Below are positions 5,366 through 58,440 of a stretch of 64,000 bases of DNA, one piece after another. The position numbers were made by a program, and so were the translations under genes. The notes under the pieces were generated by a model. The model had not been told where the DNA came from. It made no database searches and saw only the letters and a program-made list of their open reading frames with translations. How positions within the stretch are numbered: position 1 is the stretch's first letter; each line of letters starts with the position of its first letter. Source of the stretch: Vicinamibacterales bacterium (GTDB lineage: Bacteria; Acidobacteriota; Vicinamibacteria; Vicinamibacterales; UBA8438); NCBI GenBank assembly GCA_965203525.1, contig OZ241898.1, positions 1,984,176 to 2,048,175 of the forward strand, read 5' to 3'.

Positions 5366-5652
5366 GTCTTGGCTGGAACTCTCGATTCCGGTTGACGTCG
5401 GGGCCGTGACGGCCCGAAAAGGTTGCGGATGGAAGGGGCGCTCTCCGGGGCGCCGCCCGGAGCAGGGGTTACGGGTTACGGGTTTCCGGTGTCGGTTCTC
5501 GTCGCGCGCTGGTTCGGATTCGTCCCGCCCGGCCCGGCCGGGCGCGCCGTTCCCATGATGACAGATGGCGGAAACACGGGATCGCCTGAACGCCCGGGCG
5601 CCGGGATGCGGCGGCCGGTCCGGAGGATGCGTTCAACGCCGTGCCGCCGCCT

Positions 5653-5681
5653 AGCATAGAAAGCCGGCCGGAAGCTGTCAA
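5653..5681 (-). promoter_or_regulatory. Candidate sigma70-type promoter for rho (TTGACA-17 nt-TATGCT)
   Basis: On the minus strand, TTGACA lies at 5681-5676 and TATGCT at 5658-5653 with an exact 17-nt spacer. This implies a leader of about 285 nt before the rho ATG (5365). Confidence 0.4.
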
Positions 5682-5896
5682 CCCCGGAAGACGCGCCGGG
5701 TGCACGTCAGATTTGTGAGACGAGTGCTCTGGCGCTGTCAGAGTTGTCGATTACGGTGTCGTTCTTGGCATCCAGGCCCTCCGAGCGGGACGGACGTCGC
5801 GAGAACCGGCCGCGCTGGATGCCCCCAGCGGCGGCGTCTCATTTTTTTGACGTGCACCCAGACCCGCCGCCGCGGCGGCCGCGCCGTTCCGGCTCG

Positions 5897-6274
5897 TCAG
5901 TAGCGCGCCGGCGATTCGTCGATCGCGAGGATGCTGCACTGCAGGCGGGCGTCGATCCCGAGGGCTTCCGCCCGGCGCAGGAGGGCGTCGCTCTCCGCGC
6001 CCGGGTTCACCCAGAGCTCCCGGATCCCCCGGGCCGCGATCTCCTCGATCACCCGCTCGCCCACCGCCGGATGGACGTACAGGGTCGCCACGTCCACGCG
6101 GCCCGGCACGTCGGCGATCGAGGCGTACGCCGGCAGGCCTTCGATGCGCCCCGCGGCGCCGGCGCAACGGGGATTGACCGGCGCGACCTCGTGCCCGGCC
6201 TGCCGGAACGCCCGGACCGCCTTGTTCCCGAACTTGGCGCGATCCTCGGAGGCGCCGACGACTGCGACCCGCAT
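5897..6274 (-). CDS. CoA-binding domain protein (YccU/YneT-like)
   Basis: MRVAVVGASEDRAKFGNKAVRAF...GIRELWVNPGAE is the typical CoA_binding_2 pattern. Start chosen at ATG 6274. Confidence 0.75.
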   Translation of the reverse strand: MRVAVVGASEDRAKFGNKAVRAFRQAGHEVAPVNPRCAGAAGRIEGLPAYASIADVPGRVDVATLYVHPAVGERVIEEIAARGIRELWVNPGAESDALLRRAEALGIDARLQCSILAIDESPARY

Positions 6275-43960: not shown

Positions 43961-44797
43961 TCACCGGTTCCCCGCGGCCGCCGGGGGCGCGGCGCAGCCC
44001 TCCGGGGCGTCGGCTTCGCCCCGCAGCCAGCGCACGTACCGTTCGACGTCCTCCAGCACGCGGTCCGGCGCGGCGCGGGCGGCGACGTCGATCAGCGCGC
44101 TGCCGACGACCGCGGCGTCGGCCCAGCGCCCCACCTGCGCCACGTGCTCGGGCCGCGAGATGCCGAAGCCGAGTGCGACCGGCAGATCGGTGACGGACCG
44201 GATCCTGGCGACCAGCGCCTCGGCGCCCGCGGCGATCGCGTCGCGGGCGCCGGTCACCCCGAGGCGCGAGATGCCGTACAGGAAGCCGCGGCCCAGCTCG
44301 GCCGCCCGGCGCATGCGCGCGTCGGTGGTGGTCGGGCTGAGCAGGAAGATCGGGTCGATGCCGGCGCCGATCGCCGCGGCGCGGAACCCGTCGGCCTCCT
44401 CGACGGGCAGGTCGAGGACCAGGACGCCGTCGACGCCGGCCGCCGCGGCGCGTTCGACGAACGGGGCCGTCCCCATGCGGAGGATCGGGTTCGCGTAGCT
44501 GAACAGCACGACGCCGGCAGAGATCTCCGGCCGGACCTCGGCCACCAGATCGAGCACGCGGCGCAGGGTGGCGCCGGCGCGCAGGGCGCGTTCCGACGCC
44601 CGCTGGATCACCGGTCCGTCGGCGAGCGGGTCGGAGAAGGGAACGCCCACCTCCAGGACGTCGGCCCCCGCCCGGTCGAGCGCCCGCAGGATCGCGGCGG
44701 ACCGTTCCAGATCGGGGTCGCCGGCGGTCGTGAACGTCACCAGCCCGCGCCGGCCGCGGCGCCGCAGGTTCCCGAACGTACGCTCCAGACGCGACAT
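43961..44797 (-). CDS. trpA: Tryptophan synthase alpha chain
   Basis: LVTFTTAGDPDLE...LEVGVPFSDPLADGPVIQ signature. Confidence 0.95.
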   Translation of the reverse strand: MSRLERTFGNLRRRGRRGLVTFTTAGDPDLERSAAILRALDRAGADVLEVGVPFSDPLADGPVIQRASERALRAGATLRRVLDLVAEVRPEISAGVVLFSYANPILRMGTAPFVERAAAAGVDGVLVLDLPVEEADGFRAAAIGAGIDPIFLLSPTTTDARMRRAAELGRGFLYGISRLGVTGARDAIAAGAEALVARIRSVTDLPVALGFGISRPEHVAQVGRWADAAVVGSALIDVAARAAPDRVLEDVERYVRWLRGEADAPEGCAAPPAAAGNR

Positions 44798-44803
44798 CCT
44801 GCC

Positions 44804-46105
44804 CTACCCTTCCGCCGCCGCGCGTTCCCGGACGGCCGCCGCGGTCGGCGCTGCCGGCCGGACCGCCTGCTTCTCCGGCTCCTCCGCCTCGCGCTCCCGG
44901 ACGGTGTCCACGTCCTTGTCGCCGCGGCCCGAAAGGTTCACGGCGACGATCCGGCCGCGGCCGAGCGTCTGCGCGAGCCGGCCGGCGTACGACACCGCGT
45001 GGGCCGACTCGAGGGCCGGCAGAATCCCCTCCGTGCGGGCGAGCAGGCGGAACGCCGCGAGCGCCTCGCCGTCGGACACCGACGCGTACTCGGCGCGGCC
45101 GAGGTCGCGGAGCCACGCATGCTCCGGCCCCACCGCGGCGTAGTCGAGCCCGGCCGACACGGAGTGCGTCGGCTCGACGTTGCCGTTCGGATCCTGCAGC
45201 AGGTAGCTGCGCGTGCCCTGCAGCACGCCGGCCGTCCCGGTTGCGAACCGGGCGGCGTGCCGGCCCGCGGCGAGCGCCTCGCCGCCCGCCTCGACGCCGA
45301 TCAGCCGCACGTCCGCGTCGTCGACGAAGCCGTCGAAGATGCCGAGGGCGTTGCTGCCGCCCCCCACGCAGGCGACCACGGCGTCCGGCGCCCGTCCCGC
45401 CGCCTCCCGCATCTGCGCGCGCGCCTCGCGGCCGATCACCGACTGGAACTCGCGCACCAGCAGCGGGTACGGATGCGGGCCGAGCACCGAGCCGAGCAGG
45501 TAGTAGGTGTCCTCGACGTTCGTCACCCAGTCGCGCATCGCCTCGTTGATGGCGTCCTTCAGCGTCCGGCTGCCGGCGTCGACCCGCGAGACCGTCGCCC
45601 CGAGCAGCCGCATCCGGTAGACGTTGAGCGCCTGCCGCCGCACGTCTTCGGCGCCCATGTAGACCTCGCAGGCGAGGCCGAGCAGCGCGCAGGCGGTGGC
45701 GGTGGCCACGCCGTGCTGCCCGGCGCCGGTCTCCGCCACCACGCGCCGCTTCCCCATCCGGACCGCGAGCAGCGCCTGGCCGAGGGCGTTGTTGATCTTG
45801 TGGGCGCCGGTGTGGGCCAGATCCTCCCGCTTGAGGAAGATCCGCGCCACGCCGTCCGGCCCCGCCCCCGGCGCGAGCGCGGCGCGCAGGCGGGCCGCCT
45901 CGCAGACCGGCGTGGGCCGGCCGACGTAGCGCCGCAGCAGCGTTTCGAGCTCGGCGGAGAACGCCGGGTCCGCGCGGGCCGCGCGGTACGCCCGCTCCAG
46001 CTCCTCCACCGGCGCGACGAGGGTCTCCGGCACGAACCGGCCCCCGTACTCCCCGAAGTACCCGCGCGGGTCCGGATCGCGCCGCCCGAAGCTGGGAACC
46101 GTCAT
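44804..46105 (-). CDS. trpB: Tryptophan synthase beta chain
   Basis: [12 protein letters not shown] and PLP site [20 protein letters not shown]. Confidence 0.95.
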
Positions 46106-46230
46106 GCGCGCGCCACCTCCTCGAAGAAAACGCGCAGGCGGCCGGCGTCCTTGTCGCGCCGCCCGAAGCCGGGGACCGTCATGCGCGCGCCACCTCCTCG
46201 AAGAAAACGCGCAGGCGGCCGGCGTCCTTG
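46077..46230. repeat. Tandem duplication (2 x 77 bp, 75/77 identical) of the trpF-stop/trpB-start junction
   Basis: Unit 1 is 46077-46153 and unit 2 is 46154-46230. Each contains ...gtcatgcgcgcgccacctcctcgaagaaaacgcgcaggcggccggcgtccttg. Confidence 0.95.
46102..46182 (-). CDS. 26-codon chimeric mini-ORF created by the duplication (trpB codons 1-10 fused to trpF last 16 codons)
   Basis: [26 protein letters not shown]. Its ATG overlaps the trpF stop (ATGA) and its stop overlaps the trpB ATG (ATGA). Whether it is translated is unknown. Confidence 0.35.
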
Positions 46231-46799
46231 CGGCCGGGTTGCGTCTCGACGCCGCTGGAGACGTCGACGCCGTACGGCCGGACCGTGCGCAGCGCCTCGG
46301 CCACGTTGCCGGGGCCCAGGCCGCCGGCCAGAAAGATCCGCCGGCCCGCGGCCACTTCCGCCGCCACGCCCCAGTCGACGGTGCGGCCGGTGCCGCCCCT
46401 GCGCACCGGGTCGCGGGCGTCGAGCAGCACCGTGACCCGCCGCGGCACCCGTTCGGCGGCGGCGCGGGTGGCCGCGCCCGCCACCGGCACCGCCTTCAGC
46501 ACGCGGTACGGCAGGCCGTCGCACAGCGTGGCCGGCTCGTCGCCGTGGAGCTGCACCGCCGCCAGCCCCACCCGCGCGGCGATCCGCCGCACGTCGTCGA
46601 CCCGCGGATCGACGAAGACCCCCACCGGCGCGACGTCGGCCGGCAACGCGCGCGCGATCTCCGCCGCCGCCTCCGGCTCCACGTACCGCGGGCTGTGCGG
46701 CCAGAAGACGAAACCGACGGCCGAGGCGCCCAGATCGGCGGCGAGCAGGGCGTCCTCGCGCCGCGTGATCCCGCACACCTTCACCCTGGCGCCGGTCAC
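46179..46799 (-). CDS. trpF: Phosphoribosylanthranilate isomerase
   Basis: [12 protein letters not shown]...[13 protein letters not shown]...QLHGDE...SSGVE motifs. GTG 46799 overlaps the trpC stop (GTGA). Confidence 0.9.
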
Positions 46800-47734
46800 C
46801 GCGCCGCTCCCGGGCCGCGTCGCGGCCGGGGACCGCGCGGCGCCGGTCCGGCCGCGGCGAGCAGCCGCGCAAGCTCCGCGCCCGGATCCGGCCGGCCCAG
46901 GAGCGACTCGCCCATCAGGAACGCGTCGTACCCCGCGCCCCGCAGCGCCTGCAGGTCGGCCGCGGTGCGCAGCCCGCTCTCCGCCACCGCCACGACCCCT
47001 TCCGGAACCGCCTCGATCAGGGTCCGGGACGCCTCGAGGTCGACGGCGAGCGTCCGCAGGTTGCGGTTGTTGACGCCGACCACCGCCGCGCCCGCCGCGA
47101 GCACCCGGTCGAGCTCGCGCCGATCGTGCGCTTCCGCCAGCACCGCCAGCCCGAGCCCGGAAGCCTCCGCGGCGAGCCGCCGGAGCGTCCGGTCGTCGAG
47201 CCCGGCCGCGATCAGGAGCGCCGCGTCGGCGCCGGCCGCCCGCCCTTCGAGCAACTGGTATTCGGAGACGATGAAGTCCTTCTGCAGCAGCGGCGGATCG
47301 ACGCACGCGCGCACCGCGCCGAGATGGTCGAGTCCGCCGTCGAAGAACGCCGGTTCGGTCAGGACGGAGATGGCGGCGGCGCCGGCTTCCGCGTAGCCGG
47401 CCGCGATCGCCGCCGGGTCGTAGTCCGCCCGGATCACGCCGCGGGACGGCGAGCGGCGCTTGCATTCGGCAATCACGCTGCAGCGGCGCGGGTCGGCCAG
47501 CGCGGCGACGAACCGGCCGCCCCGCGGCCGGCGTTCCGCCGCCGCCCGCTCCAGGTCGCGCAGCGGACGCCGCGCCCGCCGGTCGGCCACGGCGCGGCGC
47601 GTCGCGGCGACGATCGTCTCCAGCAGGTCGGCCGGCGGCGCCGGCCCGGCGGCGGCCACGCGCGGAAGGTCCGGCGCGACACGTCCGGCGCGGTCTTCCC
47701 GGCCGGCCGGCGGCGCCGGCCCGGCGGCGGTCAC
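46796..47734 (-). CDS. trpC: Indole-3-glycerol-phosphate synthase
   Basis: IAECKRRSPSRG, ISVLTEPAFF, QKDFIV and VGVNNRNL motifs. The start is uncertain. GTG 47734 (GTGA overlap with trpD) gives an N-terminal extension of about 40 aa. Confidence 0.85.
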   Translation of the reverse strand: MTAAGPAPPAGREDRAGRVAPDLPRVAAAGPAPPADLLETIVAATRRAVADRRARRPLRDLERAAAERRPRGGRFVAALADPRRCSVIAECKRRSPSRGVIRADYDPAAIAAGYAEAGAAAISVLTEPAFFDGGLDHLGAVRACVDPPLLQKDFIVSEYQLLEGRAAGADAALLIAAGLDDRTLRRLAAEASGLGLAVLAEAHDRRELDRVLAAGAAVVGVNNRNLRTLAVDLEASRTLIEAVPEGVVAVAESGLRTAADLQALRGAGYDAFLMGESLLGRPDPGAELARLLAAAGPAPRGPRPRRGPGAAR

Positions 47735-48745
47735 GCCTCTTCCCCCGGCTCCCGCGAACATCGCGCCATCCGCTCCAGGGTCGCCGCCGCGCGTCCGCTC
47801 CGCAGCGCTTCGAGTCCCGTCCGCACGCCGTCGGCGAGCGACTCGACCCGGCCCGCCACCAGCAGTCCGGCGGCGGCGTTGGCGAGCACGAAGTCGCGCG
47901 GCGGACCCGGCGCGCCGCCCAGCACCTCCCGCGCGACGCGGACGCTGCCGTCCGGCCCGTCGACGCGCAGCCGCTCGGGCGTCGCCGGCGGCAGCCCGAA
48001 ATCGGACGGGTGCACGCAGAACGTCGAGATCTTGCCGTCGCGCACCTCGCACACCCGGGTGTGCCCCACCGCCGAGATTTCGTCGAGCCCCTCCGCGCCG
48101 TGCACCACCCAGGCGCGCTCCGAGCCGAGCGCGGCCAGTGCGCGGGCCACCAGATCGGCCAGTTCGGGCCGCGGCACGCCGACCACCTGCCGCCGGGCGC
48201 CGGCCGGGTTGGTCAGCGGACCGAGCAGGTTGAACGCCGTCCGGATGCCGAGCTCCCGGCGCACCGGGCCGGCGTGCCGCATCGACGGATGGAAGGTCGG
48301 CGCGAAGAAGAACGCGATGCCCGCCTCGTCGAGACAGCGTTCGACCACCGCGGGCGGCGCCGCCACGTTCACGCCGAGCGCCTCGAACAGGTCCGCGCTC
48401 CCGCAGCGGCTCGACACCGCCCGGTTGCCGTGCTTGGCCACCTCCACGCCGCACGCGGCGAGCACGAGCGCCGAGAGCGACGAGACGTTGAAGGTGTGCG
48501 ACCGGTCGCCGCCGGTGCCGCAGGTGTCGAAGCACGCCGCGCGGGGACGCGACAGCGCCACCGCGTGCGCCCGCATCGCGCGCGCGAGGCCGACGATCTC
48601 CCCCGGACGCTCCCCCTTCATCGCCAGCGCGACCAGGAAGCCGGCGATCTGGGCCGGGGTGGCGGCGCCCTCCATCACCTGCCCCATCGCCGCGGCGGCC
48701 TGCTCCGCGGTCAGATCCTCGCGCCGCAGCAGCGTGTCGAGCGTG

Positions 48746-48753
<8 letters not shown>
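47731..48753 (-). CDS. trpD: Anthranilate phosphoribosyltransferase
   Basis: CGTGGDRSHTFNVS and KHGNRAVSSRCGSAD motifs. Confidence 0.95.
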
Positions 48754-49332
<579 letters not shown>

Positions 49333-49333
<1 letters not shown>

Positions 49334-50847
49334 CAGCCGCTCCTCGTGCCGCTGGCCGACGGCCCGCGTCCGCTTTCGGCCATGCGCAACGCGCCGAAGA
49401 GGGCCGACGCCTTGGCCCGCGTCTCTTCGTACTCGGCGGCCGGGTCCGAGTCGGCCACGATGCCCGCCCCGGCCTGCACCCACGCGCGCCCGTTGCGGAT
49501 CACGATCGTGCGGATCGTAATGCAGCAGTCGAGATGGCCGGCGAAGTCGAGGTAGCCGACCGCGCCGGCGTAGATGCCGCGCCGGGTCGGCTCCAGCTCG
49601 TCGATGATCTCCATCGCCCGGATCTTCGGGGCGCCGGACACGGTCCCCGCCGGGAAGCAGGCGGCGAGCGCGTCGATCCGGTCGCGCCCGTCGGCGAGCT
49701 CGCCGACGACCCGCGAGACCAGGTGCATCACGTGGGAGTACCGTTCGAGGGCCATGTATTGCGGCACGCGGACCGAACCGTAGGCCGAGACCCGCCCGAC
49801 GTCGTTCCGCCCGAGGTCGACCAGCATCACGTGCTCGGCCCGCTCCTTCTCGTCCGCCTGGAGCTCGGCGGCCAGCTCCGCGTCCGCCTCGGCGGTCGCG
49901 CCGCGCGGCCGGGTGCCGGCGATCGGGTGCGTTTCGACGTGCCGGTCCTCGACGCGGACCAGCATTTCCGGCGACGAACCGACGATCGACACGCCGCCCA
50001 GGCGGATGAAGTACATGTAGGGCGACGGGTTGACGTACCGCAGCGCGCGGTAAACGTTGAACGGATCGCCGCGGATCTCGGTCTCGAACCGCTGCGACAG
50101 CACGACCTGGAAGACGTCCCCGGCCGTGATGTGGTCCTTGGCGCGGCGCACGGCGCTTTCGAACGCCGCCCGGGTCGTGTTGGAGCGGAACGTGACGCCG
50201 CCCCCCGCGGCCGGCGGCGGCTCCGAGAGCTGGCGGCCGATCTCCGCCTCCAGGAAGCGGATCCGGGCCAGCGCGAGGTGGTAGCAGGCTTCGAGGTCGC
50301 AGCCCGGCTCCACCGCGGCGTTGGCGATGAGCAGGATGCGGTGCTTGACGTGGTCGAAGGCCAGGACGGTGTCGAACAGCATGAACGCCGCGTCGTCGCC
50401 TTCCTCGGCCGGTTTCGGGTGCGCCGCCCGCGCCCTTGCGAGCGTCGGCTCGAACCACGCGGCGGTGTCGTATCCCAGGAAGCCGACCGCGCCGCCCGCG
50501 AAACGCGGCAGGCCCGGCGCCCGCGGCGACCGGTGGCGCGCCAGCACCCCCCGCAGCGCGGCCAGGAACGGCTCGGCCAGTTCCTCCGTCCGGCCGCCCT
50601 GCTCGCGGATGGTCCTGCCCGCCGCCGACCGGAGCACGAGGAACGGATCCTTGCCGAGGAACGAGTAGCGCGCGAGGTGCTCGCCGCCGGCCACGCTCTC
50701 GAACAGAAAGGCGTGGTCCGCGTTTTCGGCCACCTTGAGGAACGCCGACACCGGCGTCAGCAGGTCCGCCAGCAGCTCGCGGCAGACCGGCACGAACGTC
50801 GCGTCGCGGGCCAGCGCGCGGAACTGGTCGAACGTCGTCGCGGTCAT
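49333..50847 (-). CDS. trpE: Anthranilate synthase component I
   Basis: Chorismate-binding core (GAPKIRAMEIIDELE, GIYAGAVGY) and the N-terminal LLESV-like regulatory motif FLFESVAGG. Confidence 0.95.
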
Positions 50848-52421
50848 CGTCTCCCCGGCGGCGCGTCCCGCGCTCCGGCGGCGCGGCGGCCTTCCTGCTC
50901 ACGCTCTCCGGAGGGTTCGTTTTCCTCCGGCGGCGCGTCCCGCGCTCCGGCGGCGCGGCGGCGGGCGTCTTCCGCCTGGCGCGCCAGCTCCTGCCCGGCC
51001 GCCTGCCGCAGCAGATCGGTGGCGGGCGTCTCGCCGGTCCACCACGCGAACTGGCGCACCGCCTGCGCCACCAGCATGTCGAGACCGCCTACGGCGCCGC
51101 AGCCGGCCCGCGCCGCGTCCGCCAGCAGGCGGGTCCGCGGCGGGTTGTACACCAGGTCATACACCAGGCGCCCGTCGAACCGCCCCTCCGGCAGGGGGCT
51201 GCGTTCGACGTCGGGCCACGTGCCGAGCGGCGTCGTGTTGACGAGCAGGTCCCAGGATCCGGGGCGCGGCGGCAGCGGCGCCGCCCGCGCCCCGGCGGCC
51301 ACCCGCGCCACCGCCGCCGCCTGCTCCGGACGCCGCGCGCAGACGGTCACCGCCGCGCCCGCGCCGCGCAGCGCGAACGCGGCGGCGCGGGCGGCCCCGC
51401 CGGCCCCGAGGACGGTCGCCCGGGCGCCGTCCAGGGCCAGACGGCCGGCCAGCGGCGCCAGCAGGCCGGGCACGTCGGTGTTGATGCCCTCCCAGGCGCC
51501 GGAATCGAGGCGGCGCAGGGTGTTCACCGCGCCGATCGCCCGGCTGGTGGCGTCCTGCCCGGCCACGTGCGCCGCGATCGCTTCCTTGAACGGCGCGGTC
51601 ACGCTGGCGCCCCGCAGCCCGACGGCGCGCGCGAAGGCGAGGAAGTCGTCCACGCCCGACGCTTCGAGCGGCAGGTAGACGGCGTCGACGCCGTGCGCCC
51701 GGAAACCGGCGTTGTGCATCGCCGGCGACAGCGAGTGGCCGACGGGCGCCCCCAGCACGCCGTAGACGGCGGTGGTGTCCGCGAGCTCGTGAAAGCGGAA
51801 CTGGCGCCGCATGCGGTCCGGGTCGATCTGCCCCGGCGCGACGCCTTCCCCCGCGTAGGTCCAGCACGATCCGAGGCGGCCGGCCAGCACGCGCGACGGA
51901 ATCCCCGCCGTCCCCATGCCGATCAGGACCCGCGGCTCCGCTCCGCTTCCGAGCGCCGCGACCCGCAGCGATTCCGTCAGGCTGCCGGCGGCGGCGGCGA
52001 TCTTCACCACCTCGGCCCCGGTGGCCCGCATCGCCCGGTAGCGCGCCTCCAGGTCCGCCGGCAGGCCGTCGAACGCATGGAACGACAGGACCACCCCGCG
52101 TCCCGCGCGGGCCGCGAGCAGCTCGTCCGCGAATGCGGCCCGCTGCTCCACGTCTACGTACTCGGCGCCGAGGCGGCAGGCGTCCAGCAGGATCCGCCGG
52201 CGCTCTTCCTCGCCGCCCGCGAACGCGCCGCCCTCCCACGCCGGCCGGCAGGTGACGACCGCCGGCCGGCGCCGGCCCGCCAGCGCGCCGGCGACGTCGG
52301 GACGATCGACCGGGTCGAGACGCAGCTCCACCAGGTCGGCGTCCGCCTGCGCGTCGCGCCGGGCGCGCAGCTCGGCCGTCGTGGCCCCGGTCACGGTGGC
52401 GCACAGTCGCGCACGCGGCAT
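50844..52421 (-). CDS. aroDE: Bifunctional 3-dehydroquinate dehydratase (type I) / shikimate 5-dehydrogenase
   Basis: The N-terminal half resembles AroD type I (LVELRLD...VVTCR...EYVDVE...K in VVKIA). The C-terminal half resembles AroE (GHSLSPAMHNAGF, ASVTAPFK, VLGAGGAARAAAFAL). The low-complexity tail contains a 36-bp direct repeat. Confidence 0.85.
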   Translation of the reverse strand: MPRARLCATVTGATTAELRARRDAQADADLVELRLDPVDRPDVAGALAGRRRPAVVTCRPAWEGGAFAGGEEERRRILLDACRLGAEYVDVEQRAAFADELLAARAGRGVVLSFHAFDGLPADLEARYRAMRATGAEVVKIAAAAGSLTESLRVAALGSGAEPRVLIGMGTAGIPSRVLAGRLGSCWTYAGEGVAPGQIDPDRMRRQFRFHELADTTAVYGVLGAPVGHSLSPAMHNAGFRAHGVDAVYLPLEASGVDDFLAFARAVGLRGASVTAPFKEAIAAHVAGQDATSRAIGAVNTLRRLDSGAWEGINTDVPGLLAPLAGRLALDGARATVLGAGGAARAAAFALRGAGAAVTVCARRPEQAAAVARVAAGARAAPLPPRPGSWDLLVNTTPLGTWPDVERSPLPEGRFDGRLVYDLVYNPPRTRLLADAARAGCGAVGGLDMLVAQAVRQFAWWTGETPATDLLRQAAGQELARQAEDARRRAAGARDAPPEENEPSGEREQEGRRAAGARDAPPGRR

Positions 52422-52431
52422 GGTGTATTCC

Positions 52432-52457
52432 GCATCGCCGGCGACACCCGGCGATGC
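52432..52457 (-). promoter_or_regulatory. Perfect 10-bp-stem hairpin 10 nt upstream of the aroDE ATG
   Basis: Minus strand: GCATCGCCGG gtgtcg CCGGCGATGC. Confidence 0.5.
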
Positions 52458-52462
52458 ATACG

Positions 52463-52497
52463 AAAAAAGCCTCTCCAACCCGGCGGCTGAAGAGGCT
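52463..52497 (-). terminator. Intrinsic terminator (13-bp stem, GCCG loop, T6), candidate attenuator of the aro/trp operon
   Basis: Minus strand: AGCCTCTTCAGCC gccg GGTTGGAGAGGCT TTTTT (11 Watson-Crick plus 2 G-U pairs). It ends 42 nt before the aroDE ATG. Confidence 0.65.
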
Positions 52498-52524
52498 GTC
52501 GCGTCGTCCGTTTCCGCTGCTTTC

Positions 52525-52647
52525 TCAGGCGTGGACGACAGCCCCTCCGGCGGACGCGACGAACCACCAGCGCCGCCGCTCCGCGCCCGCGGCGCCGAAC
52601 CGCCCCGCCGCGTCCGGCCCGCGGAACCTGCTCACCGCACCCGGCAT
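52525..52647 (-). CDS. Candidate trp leader peptide (40 codons, tandem Trp at codons 27-28)
   Basis: ATG 52647 encodes MPGAVSRFRGPDAAGRFGAAGAERRRWWFVASAGGAVVHA*. Codons 34-38 (52548-52536) are complementary to 52501-52489, which overlaps the 5' arm of the terminator. Confidence 0.4.
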   Translation of the reverse strand: MPGAVSRFRGPDAAGRFGAAGAERRRWWFVASAGGAVVHA

Positions 52648-52663
52648 GCCGTCCACCGGAGAC

Positions 52664-52672
52664 ACTATAGCA
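52664..52672 (-). promoter_or_regulatory. Candidate extended -10 element TGcTATAGT upstream of the leader ORF
   Basis: Minus strand TGCTATAGT at 52672-52664, 17 nt before the leader ATG. It is the same TGCTATA(C/G)T form as upstream of rnj. No -35 is visible. Confidence 0.25.
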
Positions 52673-52697
52673 GACGGCCCGCGAATCCGCCCGCATC

Positions 52698-54051
52698 TCA
52701 TGCAGCAGGGGTCGGCGTCCGGCGAGGTCCGCGCGCGCACGTGTCCGGGCGCAGCCGCAGGTGTTCGAGGATCGCCTCGGCGGCCCACTGGTGGCCGGCG
52801 GGGGTCCAATGAACGTCGTGCCGCCAGTGCGCGTCCCGGACCCGTCCGCCCCGGCGCACGATGTGGTCGTACAGACTGACGACCGGAATCCGGAGCTCGC
52901 CGGCGATGGCGCGCAGCCTGTCGAACAACGGCTCTCCCGGCCGCAGATGGTGGGTGGCCAGGATGACCAGCGACGCGCCGTCCCGGTCCGCGCGGCGCCG
53001 GAACTGGTCCAGGGCGAAGGCCGTGTACTCCAGTTCCGCCGCGTACGGCGGCGGCAATCGCTCGGCCGCGAACAACTCGTGCAGATGGAAGCGCACCCCC
53101 ACCAGCCCCGCGCGTCGCGCGATCGCGTCGAGCAACGGCTCGTCGGGATGCTTCTTCCGCAGCACGCCCGCCCAGGCGAACATCTGCGGCGTGACTCCCA
53201 GCGGCGTCCGCGCGCGCGCCTGGGCGTCCAGCCACCCCCCGAGGTACGACCACCGAGCCGCGCGCCGCGTCACGGCATGTACGTACCGCATGGACCGCAT
53301 GCTCCCGAGCGGATGCCAGAATTCCAGGTCGCCGCGGCGGCGGCGGAGCGAGTCGCCGTCCTCGTAGTCCGGGTTCGGCGGACGCAGGCGCAACGCGCCG
53401 TCGGCGGCCCGCTCGGCCGTCATCACCGGCAGACGATCCGGATCGCGAAGGGTCTGCAGCGCGGTCAGGAGCGGTGAATTTTCAAAGTAGTCGTTCGAGT
53501 GGAAGACGAGCACGATCAGCCCGGGCACCCGCTCGCGGGCGAACTCGTCGTACCAGGCCAGTTGGTTGATCTGGCCGGTGCCGCCTCGTCCGAACGCGGA
53601 CGTCGTGACGTGCAGGCCGCCCGGCCGCCGCGCTGCGAGGGCCTCCAGCCGCACGTGCAGCTTGTCGGCGACCGGCACCTGTCTCGCCGCCACGAAGGAG
53701 TCGCCGATCACCGAGACGTGGCAGTCGGCCGCGGCGGGCTCCGCGCGCGGAGGTTCGCGGTCGAGGAATCCCTGGCTGTTGAATCGGGAAATCTGCCAGT
53801 AGTCGAGCCGGTTCGTGTCCCGCACCTCCGCGCCCGGCTTGCCGACGAGCCCGACGCCGGGAACGAATGCGCGGGGGAACGCTCGAGGTCATGAACGGCA
53901 CGGTGCTCCGCAACCAGAGCTCTCCCGCCGCCGCGAGCAGCATCAGGCCGGCGGCGAGCAGCGCCGCGTTCCAGCCCGCCACGCGCAACGCCCGGCGGAC
54001 GCGGCGTCCCCCCCCCCCCCCCGGAGGGGAGCCGTCCTGCCTCTTGCACAT
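52698..54051 (-). pseudogene. SGNH/AlgX-like hydrolase paralog 1, frameshifted (one extra G/C at 53873-53877)
   Basis: The N-terminal 58 codons (MCKRQDGSPPGGGGGRRVRRALRVAGWNAALLAAGL...FMTSSVP, from ATG 54051) are in one frame. The body (from ...TNRLDYWQISRFN, 53825 down to 52698) is in another. The other four copies have gcgcgggga where this one has gcgcggggga. Confidence 0.7.
54008..54022. repeat. Homopolymeric tract C15 (G15 on the coding strand) in the 5' coding region of paralog 1
   Basis: Counted directly: 15 consecutive C at 54008-54022. It encodes PGGGGG between ATG 54051 and the TM anchor. Confidence 0.95.
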
Positions 54052-55481
54052 TACCGCTCCGCGCGCGCGACGCCGAACCGCCCCGCCGCGTCCGACCCGC
54101 GGAACCCGCTCATCGCACCCGGCCTGCCGTCCGCCGGAGACACCTGTAGCAGGCGGCCCGCGGAGCCGCCCGCACCTCGTGCAGCAGGGGTCGTCCGGCG
54201 AGGGCCGCGCGCGCACGTGTCCGGGTGCCGCCGCAGATGTTCGAGGATCGCCTCGGCGGCCCACTCGTGGCCGGCGGGGGTCCAATGAACGTCGTGCCGC
54301 CAGTGCGCGTTCCGGACCCGTCCGCCCCGGCGCACGATGTGGTCGTACTGACTGACGACCGGAATCCGGAGCTCGCCGGCGATGGCGCGCAGCCTGTCGA
54401 ACAACGGCTCTCCCGGCCGCAGATGGTGGGTGGCCAGGATGACCAGCGACGCGCCGTCCCGGTCCGCGCGGCGCCGGAACTGGTCCAGGGCGAAGGCCGT
54501 GTACTCCAGTTCCGCCGCGTACGGCGGCGGCAATCGCTCGGCCGCGAACAGATCTCGCATATGGCGCACGCCCGCCGGCCACTCGCGTCGCGCGATCGCG
54601 TCGAGCAGCGGCTCGTCGGGATGCTTCTTCCGCAGCACGTCCGCCCAGGCGGACATCTGCGGCGTGATTCCCACCTCGGTTTTCACCCCGGACAACCAGG
54701 TGTCCAGCCACCGCGTCGCGTGCGTCTGGGCGTTCAGCCACATCCCGAAGTACGTCCGCCGCGCCGCGCGCCGCACGGCACGCACGTACCGCGTGATCCG
54801 GGGCATGTGCCGGAATTCCAGGTCGCCGCGGCAGCGGCGGAGCGAGCCGCCGCACTCGTAGTCCGGGTTCGGCGGACGCAGGCGCAACGCGCCGTCCGCG
54901 GCCCGCTCGGCCGTCATCACCGGCAGACGATCCGGATCGAGAAAGGCTCTCAGCGCGATCAGGAGCCTTGAATTGTCAAAGTAATCATTCCGGACGAAAA
55001 CCAGCACGATCAGCCTGGGGCGCCGCTCGCGGGCGAACTCGTCGTACCAGGCCAGTTGGTTGATCTGGCCGGTGCCGCCTAGTCCGAACGCGGACGTGGT
55101 GACGTGCAGGCTGCCCGGCCGCCGCGCCGCGAGGACCTCCAGCCGCACGTGCAGCTTGTCGGCGATCGGCACCTGTCTCGCCTCCACGAAGGAGTCGCCG
55201 ATCACCGTGACGTGGCAGGCATCCGCGGCGGGCTCGGCGCGCGGAGGTTCGCGGTCGAGGAATCCCTCGCGGTTGAATCGGGAAACCTGCCAGAAGTCGA
55301 GCCGGTTCGTGGCCTGCACCTCCGCGCCCGGCCTGCCGAGGAGCCCGACGCCGGGAACGAATGCGCGGGGAACGTTCGAGGTCATGAACGGTACGGTGCT
55401 CCGCAACCGGATCTCGCCCGCCACGGCGAGCAGCGCCAGGCCGGCGGCGAGCAGCACCGCGTTCCAGCCCGCCACGCGCAA
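54051..55481 (-). CDS. SGNH/AlgX-like hydrolase paralog 2 (membrane-anchored)
   Basis: TM anchor WNAVLLAAGLALLAVAG and SGNH blocks VIGDSFV, AFGLGGTG, LVFVRNDY, and RHDVHWTPAGH (DxHW-T-x-x-G, AlgX/AlgJ-like). As sequenced, only a TTG at 55481 starts the frame. The RBS-preceded ATG at 55551 is out of frame by 1 nt across the G15 tract. Confidence 0.75.
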   Translation of the reverse strand: MRVAGWNAVLLAAGLALLAVAGEIRLRSTVPFMTSNVPRAFVPGVGLLGRPGAEVQATNRLDFWQVSRFNREGFLDREPPRAEPAADACHVTVIGDSFVEARQVPIADKLHVRLEVLAARRPGSLHVTTSAFGLGGTGQINQLAWYDEFARERRPRLIVLVFVRNDYFDNSRLLIALRAFLDPDRLPVMTAERAADGALRLRPPNPDYECGGSLRRCRGDLEFRHMPRITRYVRAVRRAARRTYFGMWLNAQTHATRWLDTWLSGVKTEVGITPQMSAWADVLRKKHPDEPLLDAIARREWPAGVRHMRDLFAAERLPPPYAAELEYTAFALDQFRRRADRDGASLVILATHHLRPGEPLFDRLRAIAGELRIPVVSQYDHIVRRGGRVRNAHWRHDVHWTPAGHEWAAEAILEHLRRHPDTCARGPRRTTPAARGAGGSAGRLLQVSPADGRPGAMSGFRGSDAAGRFGVARAER

Positions 55482-55499
55482 CGCCCGGCGGACGCGGCG

Positions 55500-55514
55500 C
55501 CCCCCCCCCCCCCC
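55500..55514. repeat. Homopolymeric tract C15 (G15 on the coding strand) between ATG 55551 and the body of paralog 2
   Basis: Counted directly: 15 consecutive C at 55500-55514. A 14-nt or 17-nt tract would put ATG 55551 in frame. Confidence 0.95.
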
Positions 55515-55559
55515 GGAGGGAAGCCGTCGAAGCCGTCCTGCCTCTTGCCATCCGTATCC

Positions 55560-57050
55560 TCACCGCTCCGCGCCCGCGACGCCGAACCGCCCCGCCGCGG
55601 CCGGCCCGCGGAACCCGCTCATCGCACCCGGCCTGCCGTCCGCCGGAGACACCTGTAGCAGGCGGCCCCCGGAGCCGCCCGCACCTCGTGCAGCAGGGGT
55701 CGTCCGGCGAGGGCCGCGCGCGCACGTGTCCGGGTGCCGTCGCAGGTGTTCGAGGATCGCCTCGGCGGCCCACTGGTGGCCGGCGGGGGTCCAGTGATCG
55801 TCGTGCCGCCAGTGCGCGTCCCGGACCCGTCCGCCCCGGCGCACGACGTGGTCGTACAGACTGACGACCGGAATCCGGAGCTCGTCGGTGATGGCGCGCA
55901 GCCTGTCGAACAACGGCTCTCCCGGCCGCAGATGGTGGGTGGCCAGGATGACCAGCGACGCGCCGTCCCGGTCCGCGCGGCGCCGGAACTGGTCCAGGGC
56001 GAAGGCCGTGTACTCCAGTTCCGCCGCGTACGGCGGCGGCAATCGCTCGGCCGCGAACAACTCGTGCAGATGGAAGCGCACCCCCACCAGCCCCGCGCGT
56101 CGCGCGATCGCGTCGAGCAACGGCTCGTCGGGATGCTTCTTCCGCAGCACGCCCGCCCAGGCGAACATCTGCGGCGTGATTCCCAGCGGTGCCAGACTGC
56201 GCGCCTGGGCGTTCAGCCACTCCCCGAGGTACGACCACCGAGCCGCGCGCCCCGTCACGGCATGTGCGTACCGCATGGACCGCATGCTCCCGAGCGGATG
56301 CCAGAATTCCAGGTCGCCGCGGCGGCGGCGGAGCGAGCCGCGATCCTCGTAGTCCGGGTTCGGCGGACGCAGGCGCAACGCGCCGTCGGCGGCCCGCTCG
56401 GCCGTCATCATCGGCAGCCGATCCGGATCGCGAAGGGTCCGTAGCGCGGTCAGGAGCGGTGAATTGTTCATGTAGTCGTTCTGGACGAAGACGAGCACGA
56501 TCAGCCCGGGCGCCCGCTTGCGGGCGAACTCGTCGTAGTAGGCCAATTGAGCGAGCTGGCCGGTGCCGCCTCGTCCGAACGCGGACGTCGTCATGTTCAG
56601 GCTGCCCAGCCGCCGCGCCGCGAGGACCTCCAGCCGCACGTGCAGCTTGTCGGCGATCGGCACTTGTACCGCTTCCACGAAGGAGTCGCCGATCACCGTG
56701 ACGTGGCAGCCGGTCGCGGCGGGCTCCGTGCGCGGAGGTTCGCGGTCGAGGAATCCCTCGCGGTTGAATCGGGAAACCTGCCAGAAGTCGAGCCGGTTCG
56801 TGGCCTGCACCTCCGCGCCCGGCCTGCCGAGGAGCCCGACGCCGGGAACGAATGCGCGGGGAGCGCTCGCGGTCATGAACGGCACGGTGCTCCGCAACCG
56901 GAGCTCTCCCGCCACGGCGAGCAACGCCAAGCCGGCGGCGATCAGCGCCGCGTTCCAGCCCGCCACGCGCAACGCCCGGCGGACGCGGCGGCGACGACCG
57001 CGCGGCGCACGCACCGGGTGTCGGACGTCCCGGTCACCCATCCGCCGCAT
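55560..57050 (-). CDS. SGNH/AlgX-like hydrolase paralog 3
   Basis: 496 aa starting MRRMGDRDV...RRRRVRRALRVAGWNAALIAAGLALL, with the same SGNH blocks. There is no homopolymer; RGRRRR replaces the G-tract. Confidence 0.85.
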   Translation of the reverse strand: MRRMGDRDVRHPVRAPRGRRRRVRRALRVAGWNAALIAAGLALLAVAGELRLRSTVPFMTASAPRAFVPGVGLLGRPGAEVQATNRLDFWQVSRFNREGFLDREPPRTEPAATGCHVTVIGDSFVEAVQVPIADKLHVRLEVLAARRLGSLNMTTSAFGRGGTGQLAQLAYYDEFARKRAPGLIVLVFVQNDYMNNSPLLTALRTLRDPDRLPMMTAERAADGALRLRPPNPDYEDRGSLRRRRGDLEFWHPLGSMRSMRYAHAVTGRAARWSYLGEWLNAQARSLAPLGITPQMFAWAGVLRKKHPDEPLLDAIARRAGLVGVRFHLHELFAAERLPPPYAAELEYTAFALDQFRRRADRDGASLVILATHHLRPGEPLFDRLRAITDELRIPVVSLYDHVVRRGGRVRDAHWRHDDHWTPAGHQWAAEAILEHLRRHPDTCARGPRRTTPAARGAGGSGGRLLQVSPADGRPGAMSGFRGPAAAGRFGVAGAER

Positions 57051-58440
57051 GCTCCGGAACGGCGGCCACTCCGGTTGCCGCCTCTCGTGAAGCAGGGGGC
57101 GGCGGCCGGCGAGGGCCGCGCGCGCACACGTCCGGGCACCGCCGCAGATGTTCGAGGATCGCCTCGGCGGCCCACTCGTGGCCGGCGGGGGTCCAGTGCG
57201 GGTCGTGCCGCCAGTGCGCGTCCCGGACTCGTCCGCCCCGGCGCGCGATGTGGTCGTACTGACTGACGACCGGAATCCGGAGCTTGCCGGCGATGGCGCG
57301 CAGCCTGTCGAACGACGGCTCTCCCGGCCGCAGATGGTGGATGGCCAGAATGACCAGCGACGCGCCGTCCCGGTCCGCGCGGCGCCGGAACTGGTCCAGG
57401 GCGAAGGCCGTGTATTCCAGTTCGGCCGCGTACGGCGGCGGCAGCGGATCGGCCGCGAACAGATCGTTCAAAAAGCGCGTTCCCGCCGGCCACTCGCGTC
57501 GCGCGAACGCGCCGAGCAACGGCTCGTCGGGATGCTTCTTCCGCAGCACGTCCGCCCAGGCGAGCCTGTCCGGCGTGGCTTCCGGCGGCGTCAGCACGTC
57601 CGCATGGGCGTCCAGCCACCCCCCGAGGTACGACCACCGAGCCGCGCGCCTCGTCGTGGCACGCACGTACCGCATGAAGCTGGGAGGGTACCAGGCTCCC
57701 AGGTCGCCGCGGCGGCGACGGATCGACTCTTGGTCCTCGTACTCAGGGTTCGGCGGACGCAGGCGCAACGCGCCGTCCGCGGCCCGCTCGGCCGTCATCA
57801 CCGGCAGACGATTCGGGTCGCGAAGGGAACTCAGCGCGATCAGGAGCCTTGAATTTTCAAAGTAATCATTCCGGGCGAAGACCAGCACGATCAGTCCGGG
57901 CGCCCGCTTGCGGGCGAACTCGTCATAGTAGGCCAGTTGATTGATCTGGCCGGTGCCGCCTCGTCCGAACGCGGACGTCGTGACGTGCAGGCCGCCCGGC
58001 CGCCGCGCCGCGAGGACCTCCAGCCGCACGTGCAGCTTGTCGGCGAGCGGCACTTCCCGCGCTTCCACGAAGGAGTCGCCGATCACCGTGACGTGGCAGG
58101 CGTCCGCGGCGGGCTCGGCGCGCGGAGGTTCGCGGTCGAGGAATCCCTGGCGGTTGAATCGGGAAACCTGCCAGAAGTCGAGCCGGTTCGTGGCCCGCAC
58201 CTCCGCGCCCGGCCTGCCGAGGATCCCGACGCCGGGAACGAATGCGCGGGGAATGCTCGAGGTCATGAACGGTACGGCGCTCCGCAACCAGAGCTCTCCC
58301 GCCGCCGCGAGCAGCGCCAGGCCGGCGGCGGTCAGCGCCGCGTTCCAGCCCGCCACGCGCAACGCCCGGCGGACGCGGCGGCGACGGCCGCGCGGCGCAC
58401 GTGCCGGGCGGCGGACATCCCCGTCACCCATCCGCCGCAT
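57034..58440 (-). CDS. SGNH/AlgX-like hydrolase paralog 4
   Basis: 468 aa. The stop overlaps the paralog 3 start by 17 nt. It has the same blocks (VIGDSFV, AFGRGGTG, VFARNDY, RHDPHWTPAGH). Confidence 0.85.
   Translation of the reverse strand: MRRMGDGDVRRPARAPRGRRRRVRRALRVAGWNAALTAAGLALLAAAGELWLRSAVPFMTSSIPRAFVPGVGILGRPGAEVRATNRLDFWQVSRFNRQGFLDREPPRAEPAADACHVTVIGDSFVEAREVPLADKLHVRLEVLAARRPGGLHVTTSAFGRGGTGQINQLAYYDEFARKRAPGLIVLVFARNDYFENSRLLIALSSLRDPNRLPVMTAERAADGALRLRPPNPEYEDQESIRRRRGDLGAWYPPSFMRYVRATTRRAARWSYLGGWLDAHADVLTPPEATPDRLAWADVLRKKHPDEPLLGAFARREWPAGTRFLNDLFAADPLPPPYAAELEYTAFALDQFRRRADRDGASLVILAIHHLRPGEPSFDRLRAIAGKLRIPVVSQYDHIARRGGRVRDAHWRHDPHWTPAGHEWAAEAILEHLRRCPDVCARGPRRPPPPASREAATGVAAVPEHAADG

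Follow-up and report, generated by a model that had tools for sequence, protein, structure and literature searches.

In the enterobacterial trpL system (Rfam family RF00513, E. coli), a short open reading frame (ORF) with tandem Trp codons lies directly upstream of the first biosynthetic gene, an antiterminator and a terminator compete for one RNA strand, and a ribosome at the leader stop codon prevents the antiterminator. Actinobacterial trp attenuators, namely the trp leader of Corynebacterium glutamicum and the trpE leader of Streptomyces venezuelae, lie outside Proteobacteria in high-GC genomes and also carry, upstream of trpE, a leader ORF that contains Trp codons and is followed by a terminator (PMC4833913). 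In the soil bacterium Sinorhizobium meliloti, the ribosome-dependent Trp attenuator trpL is located upstream of trpE(G), and termination frees a small leader RNA; the released rnTrpL RNA and the peTrpL peptide act in trans (PMC6614838, PMC7298713). The TRAP protein of the Bacillus subtilis aro supraoperon, where the trp genes are co-transcribed with genes of the common aromatic pathway, responds to free Trp, and the (G/U)AG repeats that it binds lie in a leader that has no ORF and forms mutually exclusive antiterminator and terminator structures.

The window (the whole stretch of DNA analysed, 64,000 nt, in which all positions are numbered) comes from a Vicinamibacterales-like member of the Acidobacteriota, a lineage known here from metagenome-assembled genomes only. 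Pfam matches and reading frames delineate on its minus strand a putative operon aroDE-trpEGDCFBA (43961..52421), which consists of the AroD-AroE fusion gene aroDE (50844-52421), trpE (49333-50847), trpG (48746-49333), trpD (47731-48753), trpC (about 46796-47650), trpF (about 46179-46790), trpB (44804-46105), and trpA (43961-44797), each assigned by Pfam. The gene order aroDE-trpE-trpG-trpD is the same in 30 related loci; the contig of locus L029 ends within trpE. An earlier note on this DNA had proposed a ribosome-mediated Trp attenuator in front of the operon, and comparative evidence, in the form of a conserved module with conserved geometry, supports the proposal. Judging from sequence comparison and folding models, we consider it quite probable that a leader-peptide transcription attenuator couples expression of aroDE-trpEGDCFBA to charged tRNA-Trp.

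The window leader shares with enterobacterial trpL the tandem Trp codons in a short ORF, the competition for one strand, and the position directly upstream of the first biosynthetic gene, but has no sequence or structure similarity to it. A scan of positions 50000-55000 against Rfam at E <= 10 returned no matches, whether to Trp_leader (RF00513), to T-box, or to any riboswitch, and in ten related loci scanned at gathering score a cobalamin riboswitch in L010, unrelated to the leader, was all that matched. The operon starts with the fused aroDE, and the host belongs to the Acidobacteriota. The leader is also longer than that of E. coli, 40 codons as compared with 14. The actinobacterial attenuators, which belong to another phylum, have no detectable homology to it, as compared indirectly through Rfam. 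The S. meliloti leader is likewise unrelated in sequence and controls trpE(G) only, whereas the predicted control in the window covers the whole pathway together with aroDE. Finally, in contrast to the TRAP-bound leader, the window has a conserved leader ORF and no repeat array. The proposed mechanism is that of textbook attenuation, whereas the RNA and leader-peptide family, with at least about 140 sequences found in silico, is absent from Rfam 15, and the searchable literature yielded no account of it.

The elements of the attenuator, their conservation, complementarity and geometry were established in silico. The trpL-like leader ORF (52525..52647, minus strand, as are all features below) consists of 40 codons and a stop, running from ATG at 52647 to TGA at 52527-52525 (translation MPGAVSRFRGPDAAGRFGAAGAERRRWWFVASAGGAVVHA). 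Codons 27-28 are the tandem Trp codons UGGUGG (52564..52569), the putative sensing site, with a Phe codon directly after them; both the ORF and the TGGTGG at 52569-52564 proved to be exactly as first described when the minus strand was checked and translated. The C-terminal part of the leader, WW..F...AGGAV, is homologous to the leaders of L010 and L011.

The intrinsic terminator (52463..52497) is formed by a 13-bp stem (AGCCTCTTCAGCC / GGTTGGAGAGGCT) with a GCCG loop and T6. A terminator scan recovered this hairpin as previously reported, with 13 pairs, seven of them G-C, and no other terminator-like site occurs in 51900-53300, where shuffled sequences would give 0.3; in isolation it has a folding energy of -23.0 kcal/mol. 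In the alignment of 30 sequences 95.8% of the terminator cells are paired and five pairs have changed on both sides, which none of 500 shuffles matched. The RNAalifold consensus of the full alignment is this terminator, and no structure besides it was predicted there.

The 5' strand of the antiterminator, segment 2 (52536..52548, GGAGGGGCUGUCG), contains a conserved core, GGAGGGGC, at 52548-52541, and its 3' strand, segment 3 (52489..52501, CGACAGCCUCUUC), shares 9 nt with the 5' arm of the terminator. The 13-bp helix of 11 Watson-Crick and two G-U pairs claimed in the earlier note can indeed be drawn between them, but only its inner 8 bp are conserved, at least 28 of the 30 loci having this core paired to the terminator arm, and the outer 5 bp are lineage-specific. 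The best duplex between the 3' part of the window leader and the terminator 5' arm has an energy of -23.2 kcal/mol, compared with -9.2 +/- 2.2 in 500 shuffles (z -6.4, none as good). Over the 30 loci the mean z of the segment 2:3 duplex is -2.6, with 25 loci below -1.64 and the window strongest. The search for covariation gave a divided answer: compensatory changes are seen in the terminator, but covariation of the antiterminator in the genome-set alignment is not above the shuffle level, since its core hardly varies and conservation does not extend to the outer 5 bp. Where segment 3 has C for U (L013/L014, L019, and L027), the partner position of segment 2 is occupied by G. The reading frame of segment 2 also differs, being shifted in L017/L047, and the stop codon falls inside the segment in L034 and in at least eight metagenome leaders. 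Being read in three frames, this purine segment is conserved as RNA and not as peptide.

An inner hairpin GUCGUCC...GGACGAC between segments 2 and 3 (52503..52539, -12.6 kcal/mol) shares the final 4 nt of segment 2, and the stop codon of the leader lies within the region of its loop; its GGACGAC strand is present in L010 and L011 too. The gap between the terminator and aroDE contains a perfect 10-bp hairpin, GCAUCGCCGG/CCGGCGAUGC (52432..52457, -20.6 kcal/mol), which is unique within the window and shared with L003 only; it agrees with the original description, but the gap itself, from 52463 to the ATG at 52421, is 41 nt and not 42 nt. Neither whole-leader folding nor duplex comparison revealed a conserved segment 1:2 anti-antiterminator or pause hairpin by which ribosome and polymerase would be kept in step. 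In whole-leader folds of untranslated RNA the partner of segment 2 varies by locus, and the duplex of the Trp region with the spacer is no better than in shuffles (mean z 0.09). Lineage-specific candidates for an anti-antiterminator are GUCGCGUC/GACGCGAC in the window and others in L016/L028 and L022/L035. As far as we know, a segment 1:2 helix is not required of all leader-peptide attenuators.

Upstream of the leader ORF an extended -10 element, TGcTATAGT (52664..52672), was read from the sequence, with a predicted transcription start near 52657. Its orthologous element in the relatives is the -10 region, TCTGnTAnnnT, of TTGACAC-N16-18-TAnnnT promoters, which are present in 24 of the 27 loci scored. 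The window lacks the -35 hexamer (the best match to TTGACA is 1/6), and for this reason a two-hexamer promoter scan detected no promoter at its leader. This promoter had been overlooked in the earlier note.

The stretch 52576-52714, which includes the promoter and leader codons 1-24 and leaves outside the Trp codons, the antiterminator and the terminator, recurs farther upstream at 90% identity. One partial, inactive copy makes up the C-terminal tail of the SGNH paralog S2 (54054..54193, minus strand), in which the -10 reads TACAGG and the leader ATG has become AGG; a second partial copy is the tail of the paralog S3 (55563..55702, minus strand). The promoter sequence GGGCCGTCTGCTATAGTG is common to the window and L003, and L003 has no SGNH gene, which indicates that the tails derive from the leader region and not the reverse. 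This overturns an earlier caveat, by which the leader ORF might be a relic of SGNH duplication, and means for annotation that the 3' tails of the two paralogs arise where reading runs on into duplicated trp leader DNA.

The complete module consists of the promoter, a leader ORF in which one to four Trp codons occur, a G[GA][GA]G[GA]GGC segment, the stop codon, and the GCCUCUUC terminator. Among the related loci with trpE after aroDE, it is found upstream of aroDE in 28 of 31, the exceptions being L001, L003, and L048; these 28, together with L023 (where the contig ends inside aroDE) and the window, constitute the 30 genome instances. The module is absent from L024 and L025, two aroDE loci that are not followed by trp genes, and L033, again without trp genes downstream of aroDE, has a degenerate remnant in which no Trp cluster precedes the purine segment. 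The genome instances were used to build a covariance model, R1, which matches a single site in each locus, at 64-98 bits, and no other site in 650 kb. A pattern scan of metagenomes yielded at least 120 raw matches and added at least 110 distinct leaders; among the matches listed, at least 102 are located directly upstream of aroDE and at least two (L059 and L113) directly upstream of trpE. Six matches (L065, L096, L098, L117, L119, and L163) lie inside coding sequence without a hairpin or T run and were rejected as chance. Upstream of aroDE and trpE the relatives, apart from the exceptions named, keep both the Trp codons and the alternative pairing, as the attenuator proposal would lead one to expect.

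One to four Trp codons occupy the same place of the leader in all 30 genome instances, the window included, and in the metagenome leaders (at least 110 distinct). Trp accounts for 24.5% of control-region codons in the genome set, as compared with a background of 1.1% in the proteins of the window, and for 29% in the metagenome leaders among the matches listed (at least 110). Tyr is also frequent, at 13-15% against 1.8% in both sets, and Phe, about twice as frequent as in the background in the genome set (6.6% against 3.4%), shows no such excess in the metagenome leaders among the matches listed (2.2%). Codons for Tyr, and less often Phe, flank the Trp codons in motifs such as YWWWY and WWYW, with WWF in the window.

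The spacing of the elements is conserved over the 30 genome instances: 9-27 nt separate the last Trp codon from segment 2 (15 nt in the window), 4-14 nt separate segment 2 from the leader stop, and 24-41 nt separate the stop from the terminator arm. When the RNA was folded with a ribosome masking the last Trp codon and with segment 4 still to be transcribed, segment 3 paired with segment 2 in 28 of 30 loci, whereas with the ribosome at the stop codon the terminator formed in all 30. For the window, the predicted probability of the antiterminator is 0.91 with the ribosome stalled and 0.00 with the ribosome at the stop. Both the spacing and these constrained folds agree with the classical geometry suggested before, in which a stalled ribosome leaves segment 2 free and a ribosome at the stop covers it. 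In equilibrium folds of the full-length window leader the terminator has a probability of 0.99 in every scenario. Beside the antiterminator 4 nt of the terminator 5' arm are left free and form a toehold, by which the antiterminator may be displaced. Equilibrium folds that included 120 nt from upstream and masked 28 nt for the ribosome were noisy, with a mean probability of the segment 2:3 helix of 0.43 in free RNA, 0.53 with a stalled ribosome, and 0.13 with the ribosome at the stop; the antiterminator was predicted upon stalling in about half of the loci, and in these models only the contrast between stalling and stop appears robust.

From the arrangement of these elements we infer a transcription start, leader translation, ribosome stalling and Trp-dependent read-through. 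Transcription would begin about 10 nt upstream of the leader ORF, at the extended -10 promoter, or arrive by read-through from the upstream SGNH gene. If Trp-tRNA is plentiful, the ribosome would pass codons 27-28, reach the stop codon and cover segment 2, and segment 3 would then pair with segment 4 to give the 13-bp terminator with its U tract, so that transcription would stop 41 nt before aroDE. If Trp-tRNA is scarce, the ribosome would stall on the Trp codons, 15 nt before segment 2 is reached; the free segment 2 would pair with segment 3 as it emerges, withholding 9 nt of the terminator 5' arm, and polymerase would continue into the operon. Because the terminator wins at equilibrium, such a switch would be kinetic. 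It would follow a three-segment design, in which the ribosome itself blocks the antiterminator and no conserved 1:2 helix takes part. This differs from the four-segment model of E. coli, and the fold-predicted default of the untranslated window RNA is the antiterminator.

An unlikely alternative is that the ancestral module is now decaying or bypassed in the window. Transcription of the operon would then be constitutive or come mostly as read-through from the SGNH array, and Trp control would be lost. The -35 hexamer would have been lost when the array came to lie upstream, and two of the loci with AroDE most similar to that of the window have no attenuator: L001 has lost the whole module, and in L003 the leader ORF and segment 2 are gone and the U tract is broken. 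Selection on the attenuator may therefore be relaxed in this clade. However, the window keeps the ATG, both Trp codons, the perfect 13-bp terminator and T6, and its 13-bp antiterminator is the best among the 30 loci. The true copy also retains TATAGT and ATG, in contrast to the TACAGG and AGG of the two duplicated copies, and read-through transcripts from the SGNH genes would still cross the attenuator.

It is very unlikely that the switch is real but set by a trans-acting factor, either a TRAP-type protein or uncharged tRNA as in the T-box, and not by a stalled ribosome. Alternative hairpins alone do leave the sensor unspecified, and the leader ORF could not be assigned a conserved Shine-Dalgarno sequence. 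TRAP binds to about 9-11 repeats at close spacing, whereas the 195-nt leader has six (G/U)AG triplets with irregular spacing and no TRAP-like array, and the Rfam scans gave no T-box or other relevant match. What is kept in at least about 140 sequences is an in-frame Trp ORF, starting soon after the promoter and ending 4-14 nt past segment 2, which counts against a protein or tRNA sensor since such a sensor would not need the ORF. The notion that the leader ORF is a by-product of SGNH duplication and the hairpin a mere terminator of the SGNH array is hardly credible despite the 90% identity of 52576-52714 to the S2 and S3 tails, as the duplicated stretch ends at 52576, without reaching the Trp codons, segment 2, or the terminator; L003 has the promoter sequence without an SGNH gene; relatives without SGNH genes and with a divergent upstream gene carry the same leader, Trp codons, and terminator; and in two of them, L004 and L030, only the promoter and the leader ORF precede the terminator, which thus serves no upstream gene and does not, as the earlier note had allowed, just end SGNH-array transcripts.

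Ribosome-mediated attenuation therefore remains our preferred reading, and it may have a wider scope. The Tyr and Phe codons beside the Trp codons suggest a multivalent aromatic attenuator that responds to the supply of two or three aromatic amino acids, a range that would suit an operon led by the common-pathway gene aroDE; in addition or instead, the leader RNA released by termination, about 190 nt long, could have a function in trans like that of rnTrpL of Sinorhizobium. We regard this extension as possible but doubtful; if either part of it were true, the element would be more than another trpL. The predicted attenuator would put the common-pathway aroDE fusion under Trp control in this lineage. 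To our knowledge, almost no gene regulation has been characterised in the Acidobacteriota, an abundant soil phylum, for which the locus offers a testable regulatory element of amino-acid biosynthesis. Together with its relatives it defines a new conserved family of cis-regulatory RNAs and leader peptides, with its own covariance model R1.

The trp leader of the window lies on the minus strand of DNA with about 74% G+C, with an array of SGNH/AlgX-like paralogs upstream and genes for an AroD-AroE fusion, TrpE, TrpG, TrpD, TrpC, TrpF, TrpB and TrpA following in this order on the same strand. The intergenic stretch extends from the SGNH/AlgX-like stop codon (52700-52698) to the aroDE ATG (52421). 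Re-reading this strand reproduced the leader ORF of the earlier note (52647-52525), which translates to MPGAVSRFRGPDAAGRFGAAGAERRRWWFVASAGGAVVHA followed by a stop and contains UGGUGG Trp codons at 52569-52564. The terminator AGCCUCUUCAGCC-GCCG-GGUUGGAGAGGCU with its T run (52497-52463) was likewise recovered, as the sole site in a terminator scan of 51900-53300 (0.3 expected from shuffles). The antiterminator 5' strand GGAGGGGCUGUCG (52548-52536, segment 2) is a 13-bp complement of the 3' strand CGACAGCCUCUUC (52501-52489, segment 3), which holds 9 nt of the terminator 5' arm. This duplex has the 11 Watson-Crick and 2 G-U pairs described before, and its energy of -23.2 kcal/mol, against -9.2 +/- 2.2 in 500 shuffles, places the complementarity far above chance. 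The gap between terminator and aroDE measures 41 nt from the last T to the ATG, not 42, and does contain the perfect 10-bp hairpin noted earlier (52457-52432, minus strand, dG -20.6 kcal/mol); the hairpin occurs once in the window and is shared only with the related locus L003, and it might stabilise transcript ends or influence how translation of aroDE begins.

The best AroDE matches among one-genome-per-species contigs are Acidobacteriota, Vicinamibacterales MAGs, with 78-85% identity, and AroDE relatives place the source of the window in this order. An attenuator module was identified upstream of aroDE in 29 of 48 related loci. It consists of a TTGACAC-N16-18-TAnnnT promoter, a short ORF starting 8-61 nt past the -10, a cluster of one to four Trp codons, the purine block G[GA][GA]G[GA]GGC (segment 2), the leader stop codon, a spacer, and the terminator GCCUCUUC...GAAGAGGC with a U tract. 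The spacing between these elements is constrained: 9-27 nt separate the last Trp codon from segment 2, 4-14 nt segment 2 from the leader stop, and 24-41 nt the stop from the terminator arm. The covariance model R1, built from the 29 instances and the window, found in 650 kb exactly one full copy per locus (64-98 bits) and nothing else except a 42-bit remnant in L033. In 11 of 27 loci scored (L010, L012, L018, L022, L023, L026, L027, L029, L030, L034 and L035) the leader ORF starts only 8-16 nt past the -10, so leaderless or nearly leaderless translation is predicted there; in the window this distance is 16 nt from the -10 hexamer. On the opposite strand of L010, just upstream of the trp attenuator, we also observed a cobalamin riboswitch (RF00174, 5437-5607, minus strand, 87 bits) preceding a divergent periplasmic-binding-protein gene.

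The module is linked to trp genes. Among related loci with trpE behind aroDE it is present in 28 of 31; L001, L003 and L048, a distant locus (34% identity) labelled Phycisphaerales, are the exceptions. It is absent from L024 and L025, which have aroDE and no trp genes. In L033, where trp genes do not follow aroDE, the remnant (5864-5978) retains the promoter, a segment-2-like block and the terminator, with no Trp-codon cluster upstream of that block. A search of metagenome contigs for three conserved blocks gave at least 120 matches. Among the 120 listed, 102 have aroDE directly downstream, and two immediately precede trpE without an intervening aroDE (L059, 1637-1709, minus strand; L113, 2828-2908, plus strand); six are chance matches inside genes, and the remainder are cut by contig ends.

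In the terminator helix 95.8% of alignment cells are paired and five pairs differ on both sides, a result matched by no shuffle. Of the proposed 13-bp antiterminator only the inner 8 bp (GGAGGGGC:GCCUCUUC) are conserved, and at least 28 of the 30 loci have them paired. Because this core hardly varies, covariation of the antiterminator across the 30 loci does not exceed that of shuffles; complementarity of segments 2 and 3 exceeds shuffles in 25 of 30 loci (mean z -2.6), and the few segment 3 variants with C for U (L013/L014, L019, L027) are matched by G opposite them in segment 2. Most loci read segment 2 as GGA GGG GCU or GAA GAG GCx; in L017/L047 the reading is one base out of that frame, and in L034 and at least eight metagenome leaders the segment includes the leader UGA stop. 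It is therefore conserved as RNA.

To model stalling, we masked the leader as far as the front edge of a ribosome placed on the last Trp codon, with segment 4, the 3' arm of the terminator, not yet made. Segment 3 then forms its helix with segment 2 in 28 of the 30 loci, and with the ribosome on the leader stop codon the terminator forms in all 30, in line with the geometry put forward earlier; a less restrictive, noisier equilibrium calculation gave mean antiterminator probabilities of 0.53 (stalled) and 0.13 (at stop). When the window's leader is folded from 52657, its predicted transcription start, this probability is 0.91 in the absence of a ribosome and equally with codon 27 or 28 occupied, and 0.00 when the ribosome sits on the stop codon. 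Once the whole leader has been made, equilibrium strongly favours the terminator (P 0.99); taken in isolation, the terminator has -23.0 kcal/mol and the antiterminator hairpin -25.6 kcal/mol. The switch must therefore be kinetic, as it is in classical attenuation. A conserved segment 1 was searched for among the loci and not found. The attenuator has three segments, and a ribosome terminating at the leader stop would itself block the antiterminator.

In the window the -35 hexamer is gone (best match 1/6), and the extended -10 TGcTATAGT (52672-52664, minus strand) is retained about 30 nt downstream of the SGNH stop codon. With no terminator in between, transcription may begin at this element or arrive by read-through from the SGNH gene. 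All other attenuator elements are intact, and the antiterminator is the strongest of the 30. The attenuator has been lost from two loci whose AroDE is among the most similar (region around 5600-6000). In L001, aroDE is directly adjoined by a PIN-like gene; in L003, deletion has removed the leader ORF and segment 2, the loop of the terminator is enlarged and its U tract is broken.

The earlier caveat that the leader ORF could be a relic of SGNH duplication draws on the tandem array of at least five paralogs directly upstream (52698-59794, minus strand; 52698-53825, 54051-55481, 55560-57050, 57034-58440 and 58424-59794), as the 3' tails of paralogs S2 (54054-54193) and S3 (55563-55702) match 52576-52714 at 90% identity. 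This homology begins at the SGNH gene end, takes in the trp -10 and leader codons 1-24, and breaks off 6 nt short of the Trp codons, the copies continuing into sequence upstream of the next paralog; L003, without an SGNH gene there, has GGGCCGTCTGCTATAGTG in common with the window. The tandem duplication unit therefore included part of the trp leader region. The copies carry TACAGG for TATAGT and AGG for the leader ATG, and the C-terminal tails of S2 and S3, which arise by read-through into duplicated trp promoter and leader DNA, are relics of the trp leader, not the reverse. Runs of G15 just past the S2 and S3 stops (54008-54022 and 55500-55514, minus strand), at the duplication junctions, could be slippage-prone tracts or assembly artefacts. 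That the terminator merely ends SGNH transcripts is contradicted by L004 and L030, where the upstream gene is divergent and the terminator has only the leader transcript to end.

We consider the observation confirmed and ribosome-mediated Trp attenuation a well-supported reading. It would work like the classical E. coli trp attenuator and like those reported for Sinorhizobium (PMC6614838) and for Corynebacterium and Streptomyces (cited in PMC4833913). It differs from known trp attenuators in lacking a conserved 1:2 helix, in its longer leader, in controlling an operon headed by an aroDE fusion, and in strong enrichment of Tyr codons beside the Trp codons. Tyr makes up 13-15% of control-region codons in about 140 leaders (background 1.8%), in motifs such as YWWWY and WWYW, and Phe codons cluster with Trp more weakly (WWF in the window, control region 52561-52578). 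The Tyr enrichment would allow a multivalent aromatic reading. The attenuator matches no curated RNA family, and the open literature searched gave no description of a trp attenuator in Acidobacteria. Regulators of this kind are well known, and these leaders form a new family of them: the mechanism itself is unsurprising to a specialist, and the family is large and well defined, in a phylum with little known regulation.
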